A stretch of DNA of 64,000 bases, from assembly GCA_038087875.1 (NCBI GenBank), contig CM075988.1, forward strand, positions 9,984,001-10,048,000, given 5' to 3'. The position numbers and the translations under genes are program-made. Origin of the DNA: Malacoraja senta. Taxonomy: Eukaryota. This document shows, piece by piece, positions 167 through 42,291 of the stretch; positions within the stretch are counted from its first letter, which is position 1, and each line of letters opens with the position of its first letter. A model generated the notes under the pieces. That model had not been told where the DNA came from. It worked only from the letters and a program-made list of their open reading frames with translations, and searched no databases.

Positions 167-676
167 ATTAAAGAACCCTGATGTCTTACCGACCTCGGCA
201 TCCTGAAAGATCGAGTGGAGAACGCTCCCCGCACCCTCCCAAGGCAAAGAAGCTTGGTAGAGGCGGGTGTGTGGTTGAGGCTGGACTGGAGCTCCAAAGT
301 TGTGAGGGTTGGGGCAAAGTGCAGTCAAGGGGGAGAAGTGACCTCGGAGAGCGGGCCCCAGGAACGCATTGGTAGTTGGGGTGAATACCGTCGGTAGTGC
401 ATAGTGTGCCGGTGGGGGTTTTCCAGTTTCAGCAGTTAAAGAGGCCTGTATACCCGATGGAGGCTGAAGAGACTGGTTGGAAACGGACCTAGAGGGTCCA
501 GGAAAAAGAAACGCTGCGAGAGAAGGGCGCAGACAGGGCGGGAACCGCCATTTTTGGCACGCCTAAAAACCGGAAGAGAAGGGTGCAAAAGCAGGAACCG
601 CCATTTTTGGCACGCCTAAAAACGGAAGAGAAGGGTGCTATTTTACAAGTTTTACAAATTCCATTGAAGCTAATTG

Positions 677-3600
677 ATGAGCAACATGGCAATAAAAGGA
701 AAATTTGGAATCTTCGAGAGCAACTTAGAGACTTGGGACACATATTTGGAAAGATTTGATGTTTTCTGTACTGTTAATGATATAGCAGATGATAAGAAAG
801 CTGTGAATTTATTGAATTATATGGGTGCTAAGACTTATGGATTAGCAAAGGGGTTGTTACATCCTACAAAAGCTGCAAATGCAACATTTAAACAGATATC
901 TGATAAATTAAAGGAACACTTGAATCCAGCACCATTGTTCTTATCTGAGCGTTTTGCATTTTATAAAAGGGACCAGCAGTTAGAAGAAACTGTGGCACAA
1001 TTTCTGGCAGAGCTAAGAACATTAGCTGTATTTTGTAAATTTGATGATTTTTTAAATCAAGCATTACGGGATAGATTTATTTGTGGATTGAAAAGTGAGA
1101 CTCTATTACAAAAACTGTTAGCTGAGGGTGATATAGATTTGTCCAAAGCATTTACAATGGCTACGTCATTTGAGAAAGCCCAAGAGGGCGCGGCGGCCAT
1201 ACAACAGAAGAGTCCAGAGTTTGAAACCCATAAATTACTACCAAAGGCTGAGAGATGTGTCCGGTGTGGAAAAACCACTCACCATCAGAAAGATTGCTGG
1301 TTTAAAGATAAAATATGTAATGGATGTGGAAAAGTGGGTCACATTGTACGGGCTTGTAGGTCAAAGAAGCCTGGTAGAAGTGAACACTATAGAGCAAGGA
1401 CATTGGGGGCTGAGGCCAAGTTAGTCCATGAAGTTAGGGAAAGTAGTGTGAGCAGCAGTTGTAGTGACTCAGACGTAGAAGCAAGAGAAGTAAGTTGCTT
1501 AAAGATTAAAGCAGTGCAGAATTCGACAGAACTGGATACAATGTGGGTAATGGTGACCATTTCAGGAGTTTCATTGAAACTAGAACTGGATACTGGTTCA
1601 GCGTTAACGGTGATAAATGAGAAGGATTATTATAGGTATTTTTCACAAGAACGGTTGCAGAAGACTAATATTGCTTTAAAAACTTATACGGGTCAAAAGG
1701 TTAGGCCAAAAGGAAGGATTGAGGTATCAGCCAAGTACAATGGTATGACAGTGAGGAATCTGTTTATATACGTGCTGAGGGAAGGCGGACGGCCATTACT
1801 GGGTAGAGAGTGGGCTAGGAGACTGAAATTTGATTGGTCAACTATTCACACATTAAAGCACAGGGAGCTGGGGTTAACAGGGCCCTTGCAAAGTAAATTG
1901 GTTGAAGTAAAGCATAGGGAGCGGGGGTTAATAGGACCCTCAAAAAGTAAATTGGCTGAAGTGTTGGCAACAGCTCCAGAGGTGTTTCAATCAGGACTTG
2001 GCAAGTTGGTTGGTATTCAAGCTACTATATCAATTACTGAGGGGTCTGCCCCCAAGTTTTTTAAACCTCGACCAGTACCTTTTGCAATTAGACCAGCAGT
2101 GGAAGCTGAATTAGATAACTTAGAGCAACAAGGAGTGCTCTCAAGGATAGATTGGAGTGAATGGGCTACACCTATTGTGCCGGTTATGAAAAAGGCTTTG
2201 CCGGATGGCCCGGGATTAGCACAGAAAGTACGTATTTGTGGTGATTTTAAAGTTAGTGAATCCAGTGTTAAAAGTAGTACAATATCCATTGCCAAAGATT
2301 GATGAGATTTTTGCCTCATTGGCAGGAGGGCAACATTTTTCTAAAATAGATCTGGCACAAGCATATTTGCAGATGGAGGTAGAGGAAGATTCCAGACATT
2401 ACCTGACGATTAATATGCATAAAGGCTTGTATAGGTATAATAGGTTGGTTTTTGGGGTAGCTTCGGCGCCGGCTATGTGGCAGAGAGCCATGGAGCAGAT
2501 GCTGCAAGGTATTCCAGGTACCCAATGTTACTTGGATGATATTTTGATCACAGGTAGGACGGTGGAAGAACACCTCTCCAATTTGGAACGGGTGTTGGGC
2601 AGGTTAAAACGTTATGGCCTTAGGGCTAACAAGGCCAAGTGTGACTTCTTCAAGGAACAACTGGCGTATTGTGGACATTTGATTGATAGACATGGGTTGC
2701 ATAAATCACCAGACAAAATTGCTGCGGTGGTAAATGCGCCAGCTCCGGTGAATGTGTCACAGTTACGCTCATTTCTGGGACTGATAAATTACTATCATAA
2801 ATTTTTGCCAAACCTATCTGCTATCCTGTATCCATTAAATGGATTGTTAAAATCAGGGGTGAAATGGAATTGGTCGTTGGAATGTGTGAAGGCATTTGCT
2901 GATAGTAAGGTCTTGATTACATCAAGGAAGGTGCTTGCACATTTTGATCCAGCAATACCAATTAAGCTGGCTTGTGATGCATCTCCTTATGGTATAGGTG
3001 CAGTGCTTTCACATCAGTTTCCAGGGGGTCATGAACGACCAATTGCTTTTGCATCAAGGTCATTGTCCACGGCTGAAAAGAATTACGCCCAAATTGATAG
3101 GGAGGCTCTTAGCCTGGTATGGGGTGTTAAAAAATTTAATCATTACTTATATGGACAGAAATTTACATTGATTACGGATCATCAGCCGTTGGTTTCGATA
3201 TTTAATCCAAAAAAGGGGGTGCCCTTGATGACGGCACAGTGCTTGCAGAGATGGGCCTTGTTTTTGGGTGCACATCGTTATGACATCCAGTATAGAGGCA
3301 CAAAGTTGCATGGGAATGCAGATAGTTTGTCAAGATTGCCATTACCGATTGTAAGTGATGTACCAATGACTGATGTGGCAGAATTGTTTCATATGTCCAT
3401 TTGTGAAGTGTTGCCAGTGGATAACAAACGTATAGAGCGTGAGACAAGGAATGATAGGATTCTTTCAGGGGTATATGATGTAACAGTACGAGGGTGGCCA
3501 GCGGAAGGAGATTCTCGGTTTCCTCAATATTCAGCAAGAAGAGAACAATTGTCTACGTGCAGGGGTACCGTGATGTGTGGTTCTAGAGTGGTGATCCCCC

Positions 3601-4808
3601 AAAAGTTACAGAAACAAATCTTGGAGGAACTACACGTTGGTCATCTAGGATGCACTAAGATGAAAAGTCTGGCTCGTGCATATGTATGGTGGCCAGGTAT
3701 TGATGGCCAGATTGAGGAATTGGCCAAAAATTGTTCTGGCTGTCGGCTTGAGCAGAAGACACCTCCATTGGCCCCTATCCATCCATGGGAATGGCCGTCT
3801 GGTCCATGGAAACGGGTTCATATTGATTATGCAGGACCCTTTCAAGAGTCTATGTTCCTGGTGGTAGTAGATGCACATTCGAAATGGCCAGAGGTTATAA
3901 AGATGTCCTCGACTACGTCTCAGAAGACGATTGCGACGTTACGAACAATTTTTGCAAGGTATGGTTTGCCTGAACAAATATGTTCGGATAACGGGCCTCA
4001 ATTTGTATCTGAAGACTTTAAGACGTTTCTGAAGACTAATGGCATTAAACACTATACGTCGGCACCTTATCATCCGGCAACAAATGGACTGGCGGAGCGT
4101 TTTGTACAGACCTTTAAGAAGGCGCTTAAAGCAATGAAACATGAGGATCTGCCTATGCAAAATAAATTGGACAATTTTTTGTTCAACTATAGAAATGCGG
4201 TTCATGCTGTAACAGGTCAATCACCTGCGATGGTGTTTTTCAACAGACAGTTGGGTTCCAAATTGGACTTAGTTCGTCCTGATCTTAGAAGACAAGTGGA
4301 ACAGAAAGTGTTCCATTGTGCACCTCAACGTCTTACCAGGAGTTTCCAGGTTGGTGAAGCTGTACTTGCCCGCGATTATAGAAACCAGAAATGGCAGCCG
4401 GGAGTTGTTGCGGAGGTACAAGGACCTCTAATGTATGCAGTCAACACGGCCGATGGCCAGATTCGCCGGCATGTGGATTAAATCGTACAGTCTACTATTG
4501 CTCCTCATCTGGAACCTCGGTTAAGTGCTTCGGATCAGCCAGTATCAATGGGGGGCCAATGGTCGAATAAGGAATTGGAACCTATTGTGCCTATGTCTTG
4601 TTATCCTGTTCTAGCTGCCAAAGAAGCACCTATGCCTTCGTTGGATATTTCACCAGCTAAAGTAGCAGTACAGGTTCCTGACCAGTTGGTTGCAATACCA
4701 AAACAGGTGTTCCCTAGCTCGGAAGTGCGGTGTTCGCCTGTAGAATCTGGATTAAGACGCTCAACCAGAATATCAAGGCCGCCACAGAGGTTGATTGAAG
4801 AACTTTGA
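677..4808 (+). pseudogene. Gypsy gag-pol polyprotein; single ancestral ORF broken by a frameshift (~2255) and a stop (4479-4481)
   Basis: Two CX2CX4HX4C knuckles; protease LDTGS; RT YLDD; RNase H CDAS/TDH/NADSLSR; integrase HHCC plus HIDY-SDNG-GLAER; C-terminal RRSTR..PPQRL in frame after the stop. Confidence 0.95.
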
Positions 4809-22632: not shown

Positions 22633-22858
22633 AATAGTAAGATTAAACGAGAACTTACCAGTTTGAAGTTTGATCTTTATTTTATGAGGAGTTACATTGG
22701 TGATTACGTGAAGAAGTCCCGCCTGTGCGCATGCGCGTCAATCTTCAAAGCAGCGGTATGAAATCGCAGATAACAGAATATTTGAAGTAACATAGTAAGA
22801 TCAGCAACATGAGAACTACCATATGACCTTTATGAGAGAGAGGGTTGGGCGTGGTGGG

Positions 22859-22970
22859 CACGTAATCACCAACGTAACTCCTCATAAAATAAAGATCAAA
22901 CTTCAAACTGGTAAGTTCTCGTTTAATCTTACTATTTTACTTCGGAGTCACGTGAGTGATTCCGTGAAGA
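22859..22970 (-). other. DIRS internal complementary region (ICR)
   Basis: Joins the complement of the right terminus (22633-22710) and the left terminus (29217-29252) through CTTACTATTTTACTTCGG. Confidence 0.9.
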
Positions 22971-25086
22971 GTTCAAAGCTCTGTGATTTCATGCCGTAGA
23001 TTCAAATCCCGGCGTCTCACTGCATCGATTGACTCGGGATGAGTGAATAATTAACAATGGATTAACCATGACATTGATTTAAATGTATTAATGGTTTATG
23101 TGAATAAGTAAATCAATAGCAACCCGTCTATCTCAGGGGAGGCTAAGATTTGAATGCAAAACAGAATGGGCAACTAGCCCTGGGTCAGCAATCAGCCTAT
23201 GGAAAAGCATTTTTTCGAAAACTAATTTACTTGACCATCCTGCGGCTGTGAGGAGATGGTCGATGGGAATATCCATTGCCCTGGCCGCTGATGTTGATGC
23301 CGCCCTGGTGGAATGAGATGTAAATTGGTAGTGTTAATACCCGCATAAACCAGAACCTTCTTCAGCCACCTTGAAATAGTCTGAACCGACCTTTTCTTGT
23401 GTGGTTGTTTGTGGCTAATAAACAATGCTGACTCCACACCTCTTAGGGTTCTGGTGGCCTTGTTAAAATATATAGCAAATGTGCCCATACTCATAGACAC
23501 GAGTCCTTGGGTATGCCGAAATATGACTAAGGATGTAGCTGGAGCCCCCTGGTGAAATATTGTTAACACACTGTACATATCCAATACTGTCTATATTTGT
23601 ACTGAGAACTTGTGTTAAAGATATCTCTTACAAACTCGGTATCCGGGGTTGAAAACCCGACAGAGTGGGTCCCGTTTGCTGCAACCAATATGATGGGAAA
23701 GTACGTTGGGCACAGTTAATGGCCCTATAACTGAATTATTGTCAAAACCCATTTAAGCATGAAATGGAAGACATCAGTAATCTGTACCGTATTAAATGTA
23801 ACATTAATATTAAACAAACCGATTCCAAACTACTCAATAGGAAATGTACTGCTTTTTCGGTGCTATCCCTGCACTCTGCAATGAGCACATCCATGGATTG
23901 ACGTGACAATCCGACCCGTAAGGCAGTCCATTCAGAATGTGTAAGCCAATAATTGTTTTATTATGCAGAGGCTGGCTTCCTGAACCACAGTTTGAACCAG
24001 CAAAGTTTTCGTTTTTAGAATAACCGTATATGGTTGTATTATTATGCCTGACGGAAGCGGGAAGCATGGCTGCATAGCCAGTCCGACTGTACGATAACTA
24101 AAGCGAGATCTTGCTGACTTTATTTCAAGACCCGACTGATGAGGCAAAATGGAGAAAGGCATAAAAGAACATTCCTCCTTCTTGTGGCGAAAATATCTCT
24201 CTCACCACTGTTATACCACATATTTTTGCAATCAGTGAAAAAGCATGAAACATATTTTCATAAATACTTTGTGATTCAACACTTATTCTGTGTTGTCCTA
24301 AATCTGAACTTGATGATAAACCAGTGGCAAGGGATTAGGTAAATATTACAGGATACTACTTGATTGCCATTTGACTAACATCTGCCACCACCGTAGTGTA
24401 TCAACTTGAAGCTGGGGTTGTAGATTATGTATTCGCTCACTGGCCCTTTACCCATGGGATGCGTCTAGCGTCTATAGCTAGTTGATAACAACAACTGAAG
24501 AATTGGCAACTCATGCAAATCTCCACCTCCAACTCGAGATGACATTCGCAATTTTCCCTCTTAGAGCACTTAGCTGGAGCAATGCTGAATACTGTTTGTT
24601 CATCATTGTGACTTAGGTAGCTTCAGCTGGTCATAGCATAAGCCTGTTAATAATCACCCACATGTCATTTGAGAGATTGCTACTTGGCACGATGTCAGTT
24701 CCCCGACTTGCACAGCTGACTCACAGCTACTATATTGCCAATACTCTAGATTAATAGGATTCAGTTTTATAAAAGGTTTCTATTAACTCCAATCTCGTGC
24801 CCCAAGGCGGAGTCATAACTAATCAATAGTTAAAGGTAAATTCCAATGACCAACAAGTCTATTTGGTAACAACTTAAGTTAGCTGGATGGATGAGCCCAA
24901 TTTCTCAAATATAGTTTGAGACTGAACCGGTGATTTTATCAAAATACAGCGTTAGAAATATCATACAGACCAGATATAACAAATGTTTTCGAACTCTGAG
25001 TCCAAACACCGATTTTATAATTAGTTGAATACCCTGGGAATATACTTTATCCCATTTTGCAATGTTTTACTGTTATTAGTACAGTT

Positions 25087-27140
25087 TTTTATTTTTTATT
25101 TTTTTTTATTTTATTTTATTAGAAGTTAATACAATACAAAACAATACAGTGGTACCTAATTTTAGGTGCCAACTATGTCATAACGTAATACATTCTATGT
25201 ACAACCTCTAGTTTTATGTTTTTGAAAAGGAGGTAAAAAAAAACAAAAAATAGAGAGAAGAAAAAGAGGAAAAATAAATAGTAGAAAATAGAAAAACGTG
25301 AAGTGTGTATATAAGAAAAGAAAAAGTAGAAAGTAGAAATAGTAGAAAAAGACCCTTAAAAAAGAAATTTTCAAATCTTTGTTCGGAGATGTAAATCTAT
25401 CCACGACCTGACCTGAAATCAGTAATCTTTACGGTACTGCTGCATCACATGATTCCAAAAAGTCGATGAAAGGGGACCAACTCCTTAAGAATTGGTCATA
25501 TTTATCTATTAGGCGGAGTCTCATTTCTTCAAGGTGTGCTATGTCCGTCATATTCCTAATCCACATTTTAATAGTTGGTATAGCTGTATTTTTCCAAAAT
25601 TTAAGTATCAATTTCTTTCCAATTATTAACCCATAATTAAAGAATACTTTTTGGTCTTTGTTTAAATTGATATCTTCTACTATTACTCCAAATATAATCC
25701 ATTCCGTATTAGATTCTATTCTTGACTTGAAGAGCTTTGTAAATATATCAAATATATCGCTCCAAAATTTATTCAACTTTGTACATCCTACAAATGAATG
25801 TGTTATATTGGCATTTTGAAACAAACATTTATCGCATCTGGGAGAGACGTTTGGGTAGAATATATTCAACCTCGTTTTTGAATAATATAGTCTATGTAAT
25901 AATTTAAATTGAATTAAATTATGTCTTGCATTAATGGAACAATTATGTGTGTTCATCAGATACTTTTCCCATCTATCTTTTGGGATCTTTATCATTAGTT
26001 CATGTTCCCAATCTTCTCTTAGTGCCTCTGTTGAGGGTAATTCTCTATTTAATATACTATTATAAAAATATGATTAGTTTTTGTGAATCAGCCTTAATAT
26101 TCATTGCTTCTTCTAAAGGGTCTAAAAATATAGTTTGAAATCTATGTATATATTTCTTCATAAAGTCACATATCTGTATATATTTAAAATATTGATTATC
26201 ATTCAGTTTAAATTTTAATTTTAATTGTTGAAATGATAACAATTTGCCCAATTCATACATATCTCCTACTTTCCTAATCCGCAGTCTATCCCATTGTTTA
26301 TATGTTTTGTCGATAAGAGATGGGTTGAATGCAGGATTATTCAGTATTGGGGTTAATACTGATAGATTATTTAATTTCAAGGATAATTTTATTTGTTTCC
26401 AAATTCTTATTGTATTGTGAATAATTGGGTTCTTCTTATATATTATACTATTCAATTTTATCGGTGAGAACAAGATCGTTCCTATATCGTACGGGAAACA
26501 CTCCTCTTTCTCCATTCTTATCCACTCCGACTGGTGAGTGGAACTATCCAACCAGTACATTATGTTCTTAATATGCACTGCCCAGTCGTAATACGTAAAG
26601 TTAGGTAGTGATAACCCCCCAACTTCTTTAGGTTTACACAAATGCTTTCGTTGAATTCTGTGTGCTCTATAATCCCATATAAAATTAGTGATATTAGAAT
26701 CTAGTTTTTTGAAAAAATATTTCGGAATATATATTGGGATCGCTTGAAACAAATATATTAATTGTGGTAAGAAAGTCATTTTTATAGCGTTAATTCTACC
26801 TATCAATGAGAGCGGGAGCGTTTTCCAAAATTTAATCATAACATTCAGTTTATTTAATAGTGGCATAAAATTGGCGCTAATTAATGATTTGTGTCTTCTC
26901 GTAATTTGAATACCTAAATACTTGAATTTTTCTGTTGCAATTTTGAAAGGGAATTTCAATAAGTGTCTCGCATCCTGTGGTTTTAAAGACATAATTTCGC
27001 TTTTATTCCAATTCATTCTATATCCTGAAAAATAACCAAATTCCTCAATTAGTGTTAATAAGGTGGGGATACTCGTTTGTGTATTAGTAATATATAAAAG
27101 AATATCATCAGCATATAATGAAATTTTATTCTTTGAGTCC
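25087..27140 (-). mobile_element. 5'-truncated L1-clade LINE (ORF2 RT to C-terminus, 3' UTR, poly-A)
   Basis: 14-bp TSD TTATTAGTACAGTT at 25073-25086 and 27141-27154; poly-T on the + strand; KISLYADD and CDKC..HSFVGC motifs. Confidence 0.95.
25429..27140 (-). pseudogene. L1 ORF2 fragment with one frameshift near 26070
   Basis: ORFs 26060-27163 and 25429-25995 join into an RT-thumb to CCHC zinc knuckle region. Confidence 0.9.
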
Positions 27141-29252
27141 TTATTAGTACAGTTAAACGACATTCTCCATTTTTCATAATGAACAGGCCACTCCTGCCAT
27201 CATTCCATGGGTGCTTTGCACGATTTTCGAGCCTGTCTTGAAAACGACAATTCTGGCCCTAATTCCAAACTTGCTTGGAATGCTAGTATTGTGCCCTCTA
27301 AGCAGATGACAATTCTTTTATCCTTTGAGTGCTGTACAAACAAGTGTAAATATTACCTACTTGTGAGTGGTCCACTTACCCATGTTTTGGAAGTGCCGGA
27401 CCCACCTTGTTGAGTAGGACTGGTAGGGTACGTGGAACCTGTGCCCAGCTGTCATGCTGCCACCAGCTTCAGTGAACTGCCCACTGCCGATGAAGGCATA
27501 GGGTGCGTTGTTGCCAAAATGCCGTTCATCCATGGAGCTGCAGAGCGCCAGCTGCGCATCTGAGTTGACGGCCGCCTTGTTCCTGGTCCAAACCCGGAAT
27601 CTGCACCTCTCTTGTAGGGATACCTCCTTTTTTCAGATTTGCCGACCACCGGTGGCTTAACCTTGCTGCGTCTCGGACAGCTGCCCTCCATCGATTGTTC
27701 TAGCGAACGCAGTGATTCCTGAGCCCAGCAGCTTCAGGATTCTTGCAGCTCACCTGACCCCATATCACCTGGTTCACAGCTGGCACCTTAAGCAACACGT
27801 AGTTCCCCGAGGTCTTGTGCTTCTTTGTGGTCTCATCCATCGTGAGCACCTGTAGCTGATGGGAGACTAAGTAATTTATCGTGGAGGCCAACTCATCTCC
27901 CAGTGCCTCTCCAGACTCTGACGGGTCAGCGAATCGTACTACCAGGAATGGGACATCTGGCAGCTGCCGTCTTCGCCTGGATTGAACTCACCGTCAGAGT
28001 CGGGGTCAGAACTCAGCTGACCCATTGCACGCGCCTCATCAATGAGGGTGCTATCAAGCAGCCCTCTACTAGGTGCTGCTGGTGCGGCCTCTTCTCCAGC
28101 CTGCCGCCGACACTACTCCTGCTCCTGGAGTGTGCCCTGGGGGATCAACCTATGCAAAAGGTGCTCCATTTGGGATAACCGTTGAAAAACGGTATCCAGC
28201 CCCGGAGAGGAATTCTCTGCTCCTGACTCTGCCGAGTCAGTGGGCCTAACAGACTTGCTCGTGGCCTTACGCCCGACTGTCGCTGGCTCTGTGCTTTGCA
28301 GCACCAAGTCTGCAGCCGCCCCGCTCCCCGCTGGCGACTGTGCAGGGGTATGAGGCAGCCGTTCACCGACCGCACTCCCGCGGCTGTCTACCAATTTTCT
28401 TGCGGCTTGCCTCTTTCCCTTGGTCGTCTTGTCCATGGAGTTGTCCTGGAAGAAATACACAGCACAGCACCACAGCAAAACAACCCGAACTCCAGCTAAG
28501 TTTGTGGCACTTACCTGGAGATTTAAATCCTCACAGCCTCCGTGCGCCAATGCGGCTAGCGCGCTCACACACTAAGCAGCCCTGCCCCAGGCACTGCTGG
28601 CGCGGCCTGTACCATAGGCCCGTCCTCATACACTAAGCAACCCTGCCCCAGGCACTGCTGGCGCGGCCTGTACCATAGGCCCGAGCTGGTGCCTGTGAAG
28701 CGTTAAAAATAACAACAAAATGCATGCAAACACATACTTATTTCCAGAAGGGAAACCCTCTCAGCCCGACTCCTCCGAGTTCAATAGGGCTGTTTTATTT
28801 CATCTGTGCTCTCACCCCATGCCTGGGGCCCACAGAATGACGATTCTGTGAGTCACTGGTGTCTGCAACTCTGGCGGTAACCCCGCCTCCCTGCGTGTTC
28901 TACCCGACCCCGGGAACCCCAGCAGGTTTGAAACCACTGACCGCTTTGTCAGTGGCTTTAAACGCGAACCCGACAACCCGACTATCCGCTTCCGCGGTCG
29001 GAACTGGGGTTTCCCCACAGCCCATAGTCGGTCCACTCGCCGGACTTCGCCAAATCCTGCCGGATACCTCTGTGAAGAGAGGTTCCTGCACGAACATTAA
29101 ACCCGGTAAGTGATAAAAACTTACCTGTAGGTTTCAACACCGCCGGTAGGAGCGATGCCCTGCCAGTCCGGTGCTTCGCCATGCGAACGACGATATGACG
29201 CGCACAGGCGGGACTACTTCACGGAATCCCTCACGTGACTCCGAAGTAAAAT

Positions 29253-36254: not shown

Positions 36255-36466
36255 ATTTTACTTCGGAGTCACGTGAGTGACTACGTGAAGAACCCCGCCA
36301 GTGCGCCTGCACGTCATTACGTCAGACGCCTTGACGCAAACGGACGTGAGGAGCAGAGCTCCTCCAGTGGATTTGTAGTTTTTCAACTACAAGGTAAGTA
36401 GAAACTTTTTTCATGTTTTCCAGGTCCGTTTACTGTGGGTCTGTGGGGATTTTTTCCACAGACGCC

Positions 36467-37740
36467 ATGGAAAAAACGGGCAGGGGGAAGAGGCGAGCGA
36501 CACAGCCGACAGAAAGTCGGGAAAGTCGGGAGTCTGCGGTTAGAGACCAACCGCCTCTAAACCCTGGTACAGTCGCCAGCGGTGAGCATAGCGACTGTGG
36601 ACCTGGGGCTGGTGAAAACACAGTCAGCACCTGTCAGGCAAAAGACAAAGTTTAAATCACAACGGCCCACGGAGGGAGTCCCAGGCAATGGAGTAGCTCC
36701 AGGGCTAGATACTGCTTTCGAGCGTATTGCCCAAATAGAAAGCCTTTTACATAGGCTGTTGGAGCAAAGTTCACTCGGGGAGGAGTGTACTGAAAGCCAA
36801 GCTGCAGGAAGCAGCTCAAACAGCTCCTGGTACAGGGCTAGATACTGCTTTCGAGCGTATTGCCCAAATAGAATGCCTTTTAAATAGGCTGTTGGAGCAA
36901 AGTTCACTCAGGAAGGAGTGTACTGTAATCCAAGCTGCAGGAAGCAGCTTAACAGCACCTGGCTCAGGGCTGATGGAATGCACCCTCAGGAATGAGGAGC
37001 GTGCTACGGGTCATGAGATTTCAGACCCCGACTCTGACGGTGAGGCTGTACAAGGTGATGAACGGCAGCTGCCAGATGTTCCACCCCTGGCAGTAGGATT
37101 CGCTGCCCCGTCAGGGTCAGGAGAGCCATTAGGAGAAGAACTGGCCTCCTTAATAAATTACTTGGTTTACCATCAGCTGGAACAGCAGGAGATGGATGAG
37201 TCTGCTAGAAAGCAGGAGACCCCAAGTAACTGTGGGTTGCTGAAAGCAGCAGCAGTGAACCAAATTATCTGGAATCAGTTGCAGAGAATATTAAAGCTGC
37301 TGGGTTCTGGAATAACTGCTTTTACCAGAATAGCAGGTAACAGCCAAGAGATGACGAAGTTGCATCAGGAAGCACTGGGGTTGCTATGCGGCACCCACTT
37401 CGAGATCAATTATCTGAGGAAAGTGCTATACGGCCTACTATGAATCCGAAATTCGCAGCACTCTGCAAACCAAGTAATATACAATTACCCAACTTACTCT
37501 TTGGAGAGGATCTCGGGAGACGTATTAAAGAGTTGGAAGATGAAGCGAAAACAGGATTGATAAAAACATCAATGGTTGCAAAGTCTGTAAAGAGGAAGTA
37601 TCCTTTCAGACGTCATACGGATCCTAGACCAGGACCAAGTTGCTCATCAACTCAGGGACATAGCTGGTGGCCTGCAGCGGGAGTAAGGACCAGTGGTGGT
37701 GCTTCCGGGAGAATCCAGGGATCTCAGAATACTCAAATGA
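36467..37740 (+). pseudogene. DIRS ORF1 (gag-like), frameshifted
   Basis: MEKTGRGKRR... homologous to MDKTTKGKRQ... of the minus DIRS; PSNCGLLKAAAVNQIIW and LLFGEDL motifs. Confidence 0.75.
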
Positions 37741-39556
37741 CTCAAGAGGTAGGTGGACCTGGTTCTCAGGGGAACATACTAACTGGATTAAGTCCAAAAG
37801 TTGGAGGTAGATTACGTCTCTTCTATAAACATTGGAAGAAGATTACTTCAGATGTGGTAATTCTGAATAATATACAAGGATTTCAAATTGAATTCAATCC
37901 AAATTATGATTTGCCTGTCCAGCATGTTCCTAGCAGAACTCTCCACTTTGCGAAGTAATGGAGGTTCAAGTTGCGCTTCAAAACCCTATATATAAAAGGT
38001 GTTATTGAAGAATCAGTCCACCAAATTCACCAATTTGGGTCAAATATATTCCCTCGATCAAAAAAGGATGGAGGATGTAGGATTATTATAGACTTGACAA
38101 GTCTGAATCCTTTTGTTCAGTGTCTGTTCACTTGCAAGATATGAAGTATCTTAAATTTACATGGATGAACCAATTAGGGCAGTTCAAAGCTCTGCCTAAC
38201 GGGTTAACGTTCCCTCCCAGAATATTCATAAAATTGTTAAAATCAATTCTGGGGATGCTGAGAGCCAGGGGCATGTACTAATGGCATACCTGGATGATGT
38301 CCTGATTATAGGAAGGACAAAACAGTCAACAGAAGCATCGGTTGCAGTAATAAAATCAAACTTTTGAAAGTTTGGGGGTTTCTAAATTCATCCAAAGAAA
38401 TCAAGGTTAAAAACATGTACCTCGATTGATTATTTGGGGTTCACAATTGATTTAGCCCAAATGCAAATTACTTTGCCCAGTGAAAAAAGGGTGGAGTTGA
38501 TTAAAGATTGCAGTAATCTGTTAAACGAGCAAAAACCTCTAATTAGACAGGTGGTTCGAGTACTGGGAAAATTTGTAGATTCCCAGCAGTCCAGTATGGA
38601 CCATTACATTATCAACAGCTGCAGAGAATCAAAGAACAGGCACTGAGAGTAAATGCTGGTCATTTTGATAGAACCATGCAAGTAACAACAAATGCTGTTT
38701 CTAATCTGCAGTGGTGGATTCTACATGTCTCAAGCAGTTCAGGCAAAGTGCTGATTGAACAACCTTCCATGATATTACAAACTGATGCCAGTGCACTAGG
38801 ATGGGGTGCAACTGACTTAACATCGAGCTGCGGAGGCAGATGGAATCAGGAAAAGTTAGTGTTACTGCAGACATGGGGAATTACCTATTTGGAGCTTTTA
38901 GGAGGTTTCTATGGACTCCAAGCTTATGGTTCTAACACAACTAAAAGGAAGGTTCAAGTTCAAATTAATAAACACAACAGTAGTTGCCTATATTAATGAT
39001 ATGAGTGGAATTAAGTCGGTGTCATGTGACAAAATGGTTAAATCAACTTTGGTCTTGCTGTATTGAAAAGAACATTTGGATTTCAGCTATCTATCTACCA
39101 GGTAGAATAAACACGATAGCAGACACCAGGTCACGAAAAGTTCCATGATAATAAAGAATGGATGTTGAATCAAGAGGTATTCAATGATATAGTAATCAGA
39201 TTTGGAATGACCGACATCGACTTGAATCATCAGCTATCGAGATATGTCTCATGGAAACCAGATCCAGGAGCAGTGGCGATTGATGCTTTCTCGCTACATT
39301 GGGGTGGTATGTTTTCATATATATTTCCACCTTTCTGCCTCATAAGCCAATGTTTGTTTAAAATCAGGCAAGATGCTGCTTCGAGGGTATTGGTAGTACC
39401 AGATTGGCCTACACAGCCATGGTATCCGTTGATATTAGAATTAACAACACAAATGTTGATGAAAGTCCCAAAAAAGAGTAATTTATTGCTGCATCCTGTA
39501 CAGGGGAACAACATCCATTATATGATCGTTTGGATTTGTTGATTTGCAGGTTTTAA
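37737..39556 (+). pseudogene. DIRS ORF2: reverse transcriptase, RNase H and methyltransferase-like domain
   Basis: VGGRLRLFYKHW; MAYLDDVLII at 38281; LQTDASALGWG; YLELL; DAFSLHW..YIFPPF..VVPDWPTQPWYP. Confidence 0.9.
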
Positions 39557-39569
39557 GAATGCCTTTTCT

Positions 39570-40520
39570 GGGACGAGGACTGTCTGAGCATACTGTGGAC
39601 ATGCTTACGGCAGCCTGGAGGAAGAGCACTCAAAAACAGTACCTTTCTTATATTAAGAAATGGGAAGAGTTCTGTGCACAAAAGAATGTGCAATAAAGTA
39701 CTGCAGATATTTCAAATGTTTAGAATTTCTGTCAAAACTTTATTATGATGAAGGTCTGAGTTGTAGTGCAATTAATTCAGCCAGAAATGCATTGTCCTCA
39801 TATTTGGTTCTGGATTCGGAAAGAAACTCAATTGGGTCACACCCAATTGTTTCCAGACTAATGAAAGGAATCTTTAATTCCAAACCACCGAAACCTAGGT
39901 ACGTGACAATCTGGGATGTAAGTGTGGTACTGAAACTACTTCGTGAATGGTCATCAAGTGTGTCTTTACCTTTGGTCAAGCTTAGTATGAAAGTATTCAT
40001 GCTTATGGCATGAGTGACAGCACAACGAGTGCAAAAATTTGGAAAATTACAAATAGACAGTATGGAAGTAACTGAAGACAAGGTTACATTCTATATCTAT
40101 GACCTACTAAAGTAAATTAGGCCAGGTGTGACAGGATTTAAAATTATGCTAGCAGCATATCCAAATGATCCATGTCTCTGTATTAAGACATATTTATTAC
40201 AATACATTGAGGTCACAAAGAATTTGAGAATACGGAAACTGGGTTGTTGATCACACACAAGAAACCACACAAGAGAGTTTCAATACAGAATATTTCCAGA
40301 TGGATAAAATAAGTCTTAACAGCTGCTGGTATTAACACTTATGTTTTTACGTCTCACTCGACTAGGGCAGCAGAAACGTCGGCGGCCAGGGCAAAAGACG
40401 GCCCCGTCGACCATATCCTCGCAGCCGCCGGGTGGTCCAATGAGTTGATGTTTCAACATTTTTACCATCGGCCTATTGTTAATGCGGGGTTGTTTGCTGA
40501 AACTATTTTAAGTTCTGTGT
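39570..40520 (+). pseudogene. DIRS tyrosine recombinase, several frameshifts and stops
   Basis: INSARNALS, HPIVSRLMKG, WDVSVVL, VTAQRVQ, HSTRAA (~40354), AAGWS, FQHFY (catalytic Tyr ~40463). Confidence 0.9.
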
Positions 40521-40690
40521 AAATTCCTCTGGTTTAAAGGGGATCTGATTCATTTCATTATTGAAATGAATTACTGCATTTGTGGTACAAATGTTATTAT
40601 GAATGCATGATTGATTATTTTCGTTCCGAGTCAATCTATGCAGTGAGAAGCCGGGATTGATCCACGGCAAGAAATCACAAAGCTTTAAAA

Positions 40691-40804
40691 TCTTCACGTA
40701 GTCACTCACATGACTCCGAAGTAAAATAGTAAGATTAAACGAGAACTTACCTAAGTTTGAAGTTTGATCTTTATTTTATGAGGAGTTACGTAGGTGATTA
40801 CGTG
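40691..40804 (+). other. DIRS internal complementary region (ICR)
   Basis: 40691-40727 is complementary to 36255-36291; 40725-40804 is complementary to 40957-41036. Confidence 0.93.
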
Positions 40805-42291
40805 CCCACCACGACCCTACCCTCTATCATAAAGGTCAGATGGAAGTTCTTGTATTACTCGTTTTATTATGAGACTATATTACTTCGGTTGTTGTTTTTT
40901 GTGATTTCACACCGCTGCTTTGAAGATTGACGCGCAGGCGCACTGGCGGGGTTATTCACGTAATCACCTACGTAACTCCTCATAAAATAAAGATCAAACT
41001 TCAAACTTAGGTAAGTTCTCGTTTAATCTTACTATTAATTTATCTTGCATCATGTTTAGCACAGATGTTGTGGGCTGAAGGCCCTGTTCCTGTGAAGTTT
41101 TTTTCTACTGTATGTTCTATGTTCAGATGGCTGATATTCAGGTAACATTTTTTGTTGTTGTTTTGCTTGTGAGAATAATGCAAGCAAGGAATCCAATCTC
41201 TGTATAATCATTTATGCCGACCAAACGGGTGATGGCAGTCTCAATCAGCCAGTACAGAGAGCCATTTAAGGGGCAATGTTTCCACCATTATCATGCTCCT
41301 GTAGTATTTCGCAAAGTCGCTAAGTAATATTCTGCTATTTTAATAGGGCTTTAACATACACTAGAGCCAAATTAATCCGACAAGCAGGTAAGACAAAGTG
41401 AAATATAATATCATACAAAATGGAAAATATAGCATTTAGCCCAAATGAAAATGGGGCATAGATTTGTAAAATGTGCTGCTGCAGAGACGCGTCTTGATCC
41501 TGAAATAATAACTGTGATATTTGGTATGAATAGAATCATAGAAACATAGAAAATAGGTGTTGGAGTAGACCACCCAAAACTGCCCTGGGCACCACCTGCC
41601 AACTGCCACCATGAACGGCCGCCTCGATCCGCTATAACCAAAATCCATTTATATACAGCTCCGTAATTGCGAGAGTTTGCTGTAATAAATGAGATGTTGC
41701 TATATTTTGGAATCAGCACAATCTAGCAGATATCTCCCGTGCTGAATGAGAGTTTTCATTTTGTGTTCAATTTATCTTTGGCTGCTTTGAGCGTTGCCAA
41801 ATTCATATGTTGAACATATTGCACATCAAAATTGAAAAAACAACAACAAATAATTTCATAGATTCATACAGCACAGAAACAGCTCCTTTTTTTCACCTCA
41901 TCATGGGAAATCACAATGACAATTCTATTTGTTGGCATTGAGCCCCTTTCTCTCAATGCCTTTCCTGTCTGCGTACCTGGAGAAATTCCTTTTAAACACG
42001 GTAATTGTATCTGTCTTTACCACCTCCTCTGGCATCTTGTTCGTTTACTCTTCTGGGAAGCATAGCCAAGCTGAAATGGGGCTTCCAACAATCTTTGAGT
42101 CATTTGATGTCGTACAAATACCTGTTCACTACCACCATATGGATCCATGTTTGTGCCAGTGCACTCTAACGCTGAATGAGGCAATGCATTTGATCTTAAA
42201 TTTGCCATCAAGATTTATATATGAATGTGAATGAGGCAAAGATTCGGTGGTCAACAAAGGCGAGATCAACAAAGGGAAGGTCAGAAGTGAC

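Follow-up and report, generated by a model that had tools for sequence, protein, structure and literature searches.

Conserved candidate splice signals in DIRS1-like retrotransposons of Malacoraja senta and a possible spliced route to the recombinase

Can a retrotransposon that replicates through RNA keep introns and, if so, which of its RNAs would be message and which template? The question is raised by two DIRS elements in a 64,000-nucleotide stretch of Malacoraja senta DNA (contig CM075988.1, positions 9,984,001 to 10,048,000; referred to below as the window), for which a sequence-only reading had proposed a shared spliceosomal intron just before ORF1. The answer that we prefer, which the conserved signals make moderately probable, is that DIRS1-like elements splice their mRNAs and that only unspliced RNA is reverse-transcribed into new copies. 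The leader intron is probably the lesser part of this case; the stronger part is an internal donor together with an acceptor at the start of the recombinase.

Both elements of the window are DIRS1-like retrotransposons and both copies are defective. The plus-strand copy carries the following features.

36255..41036 (+), DIRS1-like element, family C; belongs to a young subfamily of high copy number whose Gag and Pol frames are broken
36394..36461 (+), candidate 68-nt leader intron, AAG/GTAAGT ... TTTTTTCCACAG/
36410..36423 (+), inner acceptor-like site, 30 nt past the leader donor
36467..36469 (+), Gag (ORF1) ATG
37746..37754 (+), D2, internal donor GAG/GTAGGT, phase 0, in the Gag/RT linker (E/VGG)
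39520..39549 (+), putative branch point at -27, then acceptor A2 (TTGTTGATTTGCAG/), which coincides with the first conserved recombinase residue
39550..40520 (+), coding region of the tyrosine recombinase; this copy is frameshifted
40692..40804 (+), internal complementary region (ICR)
40928..41036 (+), right terminus, with AATAAA at 40986 and a donor-like GGTAAGT at 41010

The minus-strand copy carries the following.

22633..29252 (-), DIRS1-like element, family M; most of pol unrecognisable
28693..29124 (-), putative first intron (432 nt) in the leader of the minus family
28446..28514 (-), candidate intron of 69 nt ahead of ORF1, the orthologue of the plus intron; donor within a hairpin
28434..28436 (-), Gag (ORF1) ATG
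27400..27408 (-), internal donor of the minus family, eroded: AAG/GTGGGT
23935..23952 (-), position of the recombinase acceptor; site lost in this copy, kept in four of six aligned family relatives

Inverted termini, an ICR complementary to both of them and a right extension are present in both elements. The inverted terminal repeats of the plus element have their arms at 36265-36316 and 40928-40979, and the terminal trinucleotides are of the NTT type (ATT at each end), a DIRS1-like feature according to the consulted sections of PMC3266345. The five fragments taken from the window itself gave no family above the cut-off; the intact relatives L111 and L120, which the window copy matches piecewise, gave PF00078 and PF00589 above the cut-off and a weak Dam match (E 0.003). 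The closest named relatives of Gag were little-skate proteins.

Copies of the plus subfamily (about 3000 candidates) are 97-98% identical and have frame breaks in common; none of 30 fetched loci reads open for more than 100 codons from the Gag ATG. Because the Gag frames of the fetched loci are broken and copies share frame breaks, this subfamily is probably mobilised in trans. Across lineages the first 35 nt and the ICR are nearly identical, the coding DNA of these lineages being only 55-70% alike, and such termini would permit cross-mobilisation of defective subfamilies. The right terminus of each copy [40986-41016 (+) and 22681-22653 (-)] holds AATAAA and, about 20 nt on, a strong donor-like GGTAAGT; the complement of the latter lies within the ICR and resembles the 5' end of U1. 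The arrangement could control 3' end formation. The minus leader, 29124-28446 (-), seemingly contains a donor-hairpin unit twice, about 600 nt apart, with 61-nt repeats in variable number between the two units. Frames within the minus element at about 25400-27200 (-) are presumably LINE-like, a name assigned from their motifs, and two long frames with integrase motifs at 674-4481 (+) of the window were recognised by eye as a Ty3/Gypsy-like gag-pol.

Leader signals

Every coordinate given by the sequence-only reading was confirmed: GTAAGT at 36394, the acceptor end at 36461 (68 nt) and the ATG at 36467 in the plus element; GTAAGT at 28514, the acceptor at 28446 (69 nt) and the ATG at 28436 in the minus element, together with the upstream donor at 29124 and the acceptor at 28693. 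Its statement that splice signals, lengths and positions are kept in both elements stands; the accompanying statement that the interiors differ holds only in part, since they align with 46 of 74 columns identical, a score reached by 8 of 1000 interior shuffles. Judged from their sequence, the introns of the two elements are orthologues, and common ancestry explains part of their likeness. Two copies alone are therefore little proof, and for this reason more lineages were collected. The acceptor-like site ending at 36423, which the sequence-only reading overlooked, matches the 36461 acceptor in strength and is probably too near the plus donor for use. Among 30 minus-family loci the four splice sites were intact in 23/24, 24/25, 22/23 and 22/22 of the copies in which the context was found.

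The splice motifs proved better conserved than the neighbouring leader, as the earlier proposal would have it: in 14 plus-family copies, variable columns numbered none of nine in the donor and three of 14 in the acceptor, as compared with 25 of the 49 interior columns and 39 of the 75 exon 1 columns. The signals also persist in 12 of 13 lineages. Intron-less genomic copies, which the same reading had suggested looking for, were sought; none was found against 1558 unspliced copies for the plus intron and none against 15 for the minus intron. That genomic copies always keep the leader segment fits an unspliced template and fits the absence of splicing equally well. Of the sequencing runs compared with the plus element, three presumed to be RNA gave no coverage of it and five of unspecified kind covered it as DNA would; none of the joints listed for the latter (seven of seven in one listing, 15 of 164 in another) had GT..AG ends, and these blanks count neither for nor against splicing. 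The idea of a spliced mRNA set apart from an unspliced template gains partial support.

Donors and acceptors were scored with a matrix of textbook frequencies. The leader donor was the top-scoring of 214-292 GT sites per element in seven of the eight elements listed; in the eighth, L119, the leader is deleted. When 400 dinucleotide shuffles were scored, no more than 2% of them equalled the donor-acceptor pair in any of the 15 correctly anchored leaders; the donor taken singly was equalled by no more than 1.25% in 11 leaders, and the acceptor taken singly by no more than 5% in only nine; these scores leave out L158 (mis-anchored), L075 and L127, and the lineages share ancestry and so are not independent.

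The lineages were gathered by recombinase-profile and junction-pattern searches of the genome. Sixteen clusters at 85% were merged into 13 lineages with coding DNA 46-78% identical, and copies without a findable left end were dropped (5/40 in one set, 4/20 in another). A GTRAGT donor and a YAG acceptor precede the Gag ATG in 12 of the 13 lineages (13/13 leaders from these 12); the thirteenth, L127, has a donor and no clear leader acceptor. The acceptor AG lies 1-20 nt ahead of the ATG in 12 of 13 leaders and 53 nt ahead in one, and a pyrimidine tract with YAG directly before the ATG is kept in 12 of 13. Intron length is not conserved, ranging from 26 to 115 nt from the proximal donor (the two shortest measure 61 nt if counted from the upstream donor); seven of 13 leaders have introns of 40-58 nt, one of 26 nt would need the upstream donor and those of the window are 68-69 nt. 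Lengths of 40-58 nt and shorter are at or below the usual vertebrate intron minimum.

Tandem donor sites are both present in seven lineages, the proximal site alone in three (the plus family included) and the upstream site alone in two. Their loss is reciprocal, with at least one always kept, and lineages that lose the GT within the hairpin retain the upstream donor. A hairpin (z <= -3) covers the proximal donor in eight of 14 leaders; it is absent in the plus family and kept where its GT is lost. No consensus structure was found over 21 leaders. The leader feature is thus genuine and selectively maintained, and belongs to a larger group of splice signals.

Signals at the Gag/RT linker and the recombinase start

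Further sites were found by scanning 38 aligned elements, a set that leaves out nine copies with large indels and the minus copy of the window. One is a donor located in the Gag/RT linker, the other an acceptor where the recombinase starts. At the linker donor, Val is encoded by GTA in 12/12 lineages and Glu by GAG in 11/12, and the flanking residues of the linker differ. Such fixation is uncommon in the background, being seen in only five of 99 conserved fourfold columns, one of 11 Val columns and none of seven Glu columns; a sister motif, xVGGR, about 15 residues downstream, uses eight different codons. In one sublineage Gly has become Cys and the donor is still kept. The conserved block is about 20 nt long and often folds locally; a long-range partner had no conserved position among 12 elements.

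The linker donor lies within the Pol frame in phase 0 in lineages with fused and with overlapping Gag and Pol alike. Some lineages have a single frame; in the others the Gag frame ends shortly ahead of the linker and is overlapped by Pol in the -1 frame. The heptamer TTTTTTA occurs in seven of ten overlap-type copies versus none of five fused-type copies, a count in which the class of L127 is uncertain, and is likely to be a -1 ribosomal frameshift site. It stands 120-147 nt upstream of the linker donor in L135, L161, L123, L154, L155, L163 and L127. A motif F[LF]G was seen near the C-terminus of 71 of 96 long Gag homologues.

Two RefSeq isoforms of the little skate, XP_055504905.1 and XP_055504906.1 (LOC129705380), match Gag exactly to the Glu of the linker donor; past it, both switch to a different frame within the same element's RNase H region, at starting points six residues apart. 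RefSeq isoforms of this type usually rest on transcript alignments. The pattern, known here from the proteins alone, reads as one donor with two acceptors 18 nt apart and would imply use of the linker donor, which is quite probably active as a 5' splice site. The isoforms do not join the recombinase acceptor. A conserved Gag-terminating acceptor in RNase H, which they suggested, was unsupported, those acceptors not being conserved here. At the start of RNase H (the equivalent of about 38781) an acceptor-like CAG, in frame and immediately ahead of the TDAS motif, reaches scores of 5.6-9 in five lineages with fused Gag-Pol but <=4.4 in those of the frameshift type, and is mostly absent in the plus family. 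The skate gene model P0100 (XP_055487569.1) appears by eye to fuse a DIRS Gag to host sequence of seemingly cytokine-receptor type.

The recombinase acceptor, TGYAG, is present in 13/13 lineages, with TRAY at -27 in 11/13. The recombinase frame opens just 0-8 codons ahead of it; in two of the 13 lineages a TAG at the junction closes the frame, which thus opens exactly there. Conserved recombinase residues begin at the junction. A start codon is not conserved: Met is absent within 100 codons in three of 13 lineages, comes first after 39 residues in one and lies 14-18 residues past the acceptor in nine. In the two copies with unbroken Gag-Pol the linker donor and the recombinase acceptor are separated by 1919 and 1922 nt, intervals that by arithmetic would join the recombinase in frame. 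The acceptor is nevertheless weaker evidence than the linker donor, because Cys-Arg codons yield it easily; it lies within coding sequence of Pol, eight of 18 background Arg columns are fixed as AGR, and protein constraint accounts for the conservation of other acceptor-like sites. No conserved slippery heptamer was seen by inspection at the Pol/recombinase overlap. Genomic copies with the linker donor joined to the recombinase acceptor numbered none versus 1601 unspliced, in a pattern search that covers only exons ending VNRAG, such as those of families C and A.

Two further sources were set aside. In a distant metagenomic DIRS, L151, the linker donor scores 8.5 (rank 2 of 110) and shares its phase with an acceptor at the recombinase start; it was given little weight, the acceptor being weak (3.0) and its better-scoring neighbours out of phase. 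Five of 27 long recombinase proteins look like Gag plus recombinase without RT (P0003, P0005, P0008 and P0011 by BLAST, P0027 by eye) and were not counted, being gene predictions with odd middles.

Proposed splicing and its alternatives

A splicing programme behind the kept signals is likely to be real. In the form proposed here, the short leader intron would be removed from mRNAs; for the exact 36394/36461 pair this is fairly probable. The linker donor, acting as a 5' splice site, would be joined to the recombinase acceptor, so that RT-RNase H-methylase would be swapped for the recombinase in the Pol frame and a Gag-recombinase fusion would result; the join and its fusion product, the boldest step of the scheme and the one that lends itself best to a test, are a possibility to which we give a little less than even weight. 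Very short introns and donor hairpins may hold splicing inefficient so that template RNA survives, which is speculative. The whole scheme, with the integrating enzyme delivered as a spliced Gag-recombinase fusion and with hairpin-masked donors and ultra-short leader introns reserving the template, is offered tentatively.

A marker intron was removed on transposition of DIRS-1, less completely when it was placed between the left repeat and ORF1 (PMC7192593, consulted in part). Spliced RNA as predicted here would retain both termini and the ICR. Taken together, these two points mean that the model needs an added step excluding spliced RNA, and they raise the question of how spliced RNAs with both ends and the ICR are barred from transposing.

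The donors might instead be kept chiefly for the landing of U1 snRNP, which would shield full-length RNA from premature polyadenylation or assist its transcription and export, productive leader splicing being rare. Donors surpass acceptors in strength and conservation, leader introns are in many cases very short, intron-less copies number zero against 1558, a donor-like GGTAAGT lies about 20 nt past AATAAA at the right end in 7/15 sequences scanned, and U1 plays such a role in plant Copia elements according to the consulted part of PMC5580714; all of this would be expected. The pyrimidine tract and YAG kept just ahead of the ATG in 12/13 leaders would not be, the skate isoforms would mean that the linker donor is actually spliced, and translation of the recombinase is left unexplained, so that we consider this account unlikely. 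It is rather improbable, too, that the motifs are inherited by-products of RNA hairpins used in packaging or priming and of conserved protein motifs, the recombinase being made through frameshifting or non-AUG initiation. The hairpins over the proximal donor in 8/14 leaders, kept where the GT is lost, and the folding of the linker block speak for such an origin; yet the 21 leaders have no consensus structure and the plus family no hairpin, lineages without a GT in the hairpin keep the upstream donor, no conserved slippery heptamer was seen at the Pol/recombinase overlap, the recombinase frame is closed at the junction in two lineages and the skate isoforms leave Gag at the linker donor.

Were the leader donor comparable to a retroviral major splice donor and joined to distant acceptors, chiefly that of the recombinase, an env-like subgenomic recombinase mRNA would be produced. 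It is the strongest donor of the element and often sits in a hairpin, and the Met 14-18 residues past the acceptor in 9/13 lineages could serve as a start. Exon 1, however, has no conserved in-frame ATG, 4/13 lineages offer no Met that could be used close to the start of the recombinase, and in the remainder conserved residues precede the Met, which makes this arrangement very doubtful. Splicing of the mRNAs with an unspliced template remains the reading that we prefer. The exact junctions now given can be tested in existing shark and skate RNA-seq; with strong donors in over 1500 copies, the family could also contribute to chimeric transcripts of the host.

Relation to known systems

With the retroviral system of major splice donor and env mRNA, the DIRS elements described here would share a strong donor some 140 nt in from the 5' end, frequently within a hairpin, and the use of unspliced RNA as the genome. 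They differ in having no LTR, integrase or env, and their nearest acceptor precedes the Gag ATG. Introns are reportedly mentioned by Goodwin and Poulter in some YR retrotransposons, with which the present elements would share the retention of introns in a recombinase-encoding retroelement.

With the DIRS1-like elements described in the consulted parts of Piednoel et al. (2011; PMC3266345) and of the Xenopus study PMC9210276, the elements have in common the inverted terminal repeats, ICR, right extension and T-rich termini, as well as Gag, RT, a methylase-like domain and the recombinase. They differ in that Gag and Pol form one frame in some lineages and a slippery-site overlap in others, and in that the recombinase scarcely overlaps Pol. 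In a term search of the available text of PMC3266345, PMC9210276 (main text), PMC3783388 and PMC2685390 the words intron and splic- were absent. Native splicing of DIRS1 was likewise unreported in the literature searched, which took in the accessible parts of PMC6681497, PMC5890265, PMC8547959 and PMC13465315; nor was expression of the downstream recombinase frame addressed in it. If true, the proposal would explain the expression, in DIRS elements, of a recombinase frame without a start codon.

A further parallel is with Ty1/Copia elements (Arabidopsis EVD, in the consulted part of PMC5580714, and Drosophila copia as cited there), in which, as proposed here, the template RNA retains an intron and splicing starts at a conserved donor close to where Gag ends. 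Copia splicing yields Gag alone, whereas Gag plus recombinase and an additional leader intron are predicted here. Should the prediction hold, the device by which retroviruses and Copia separate spliced from unspliced RNA would extend to a retroelement order without an integrase.
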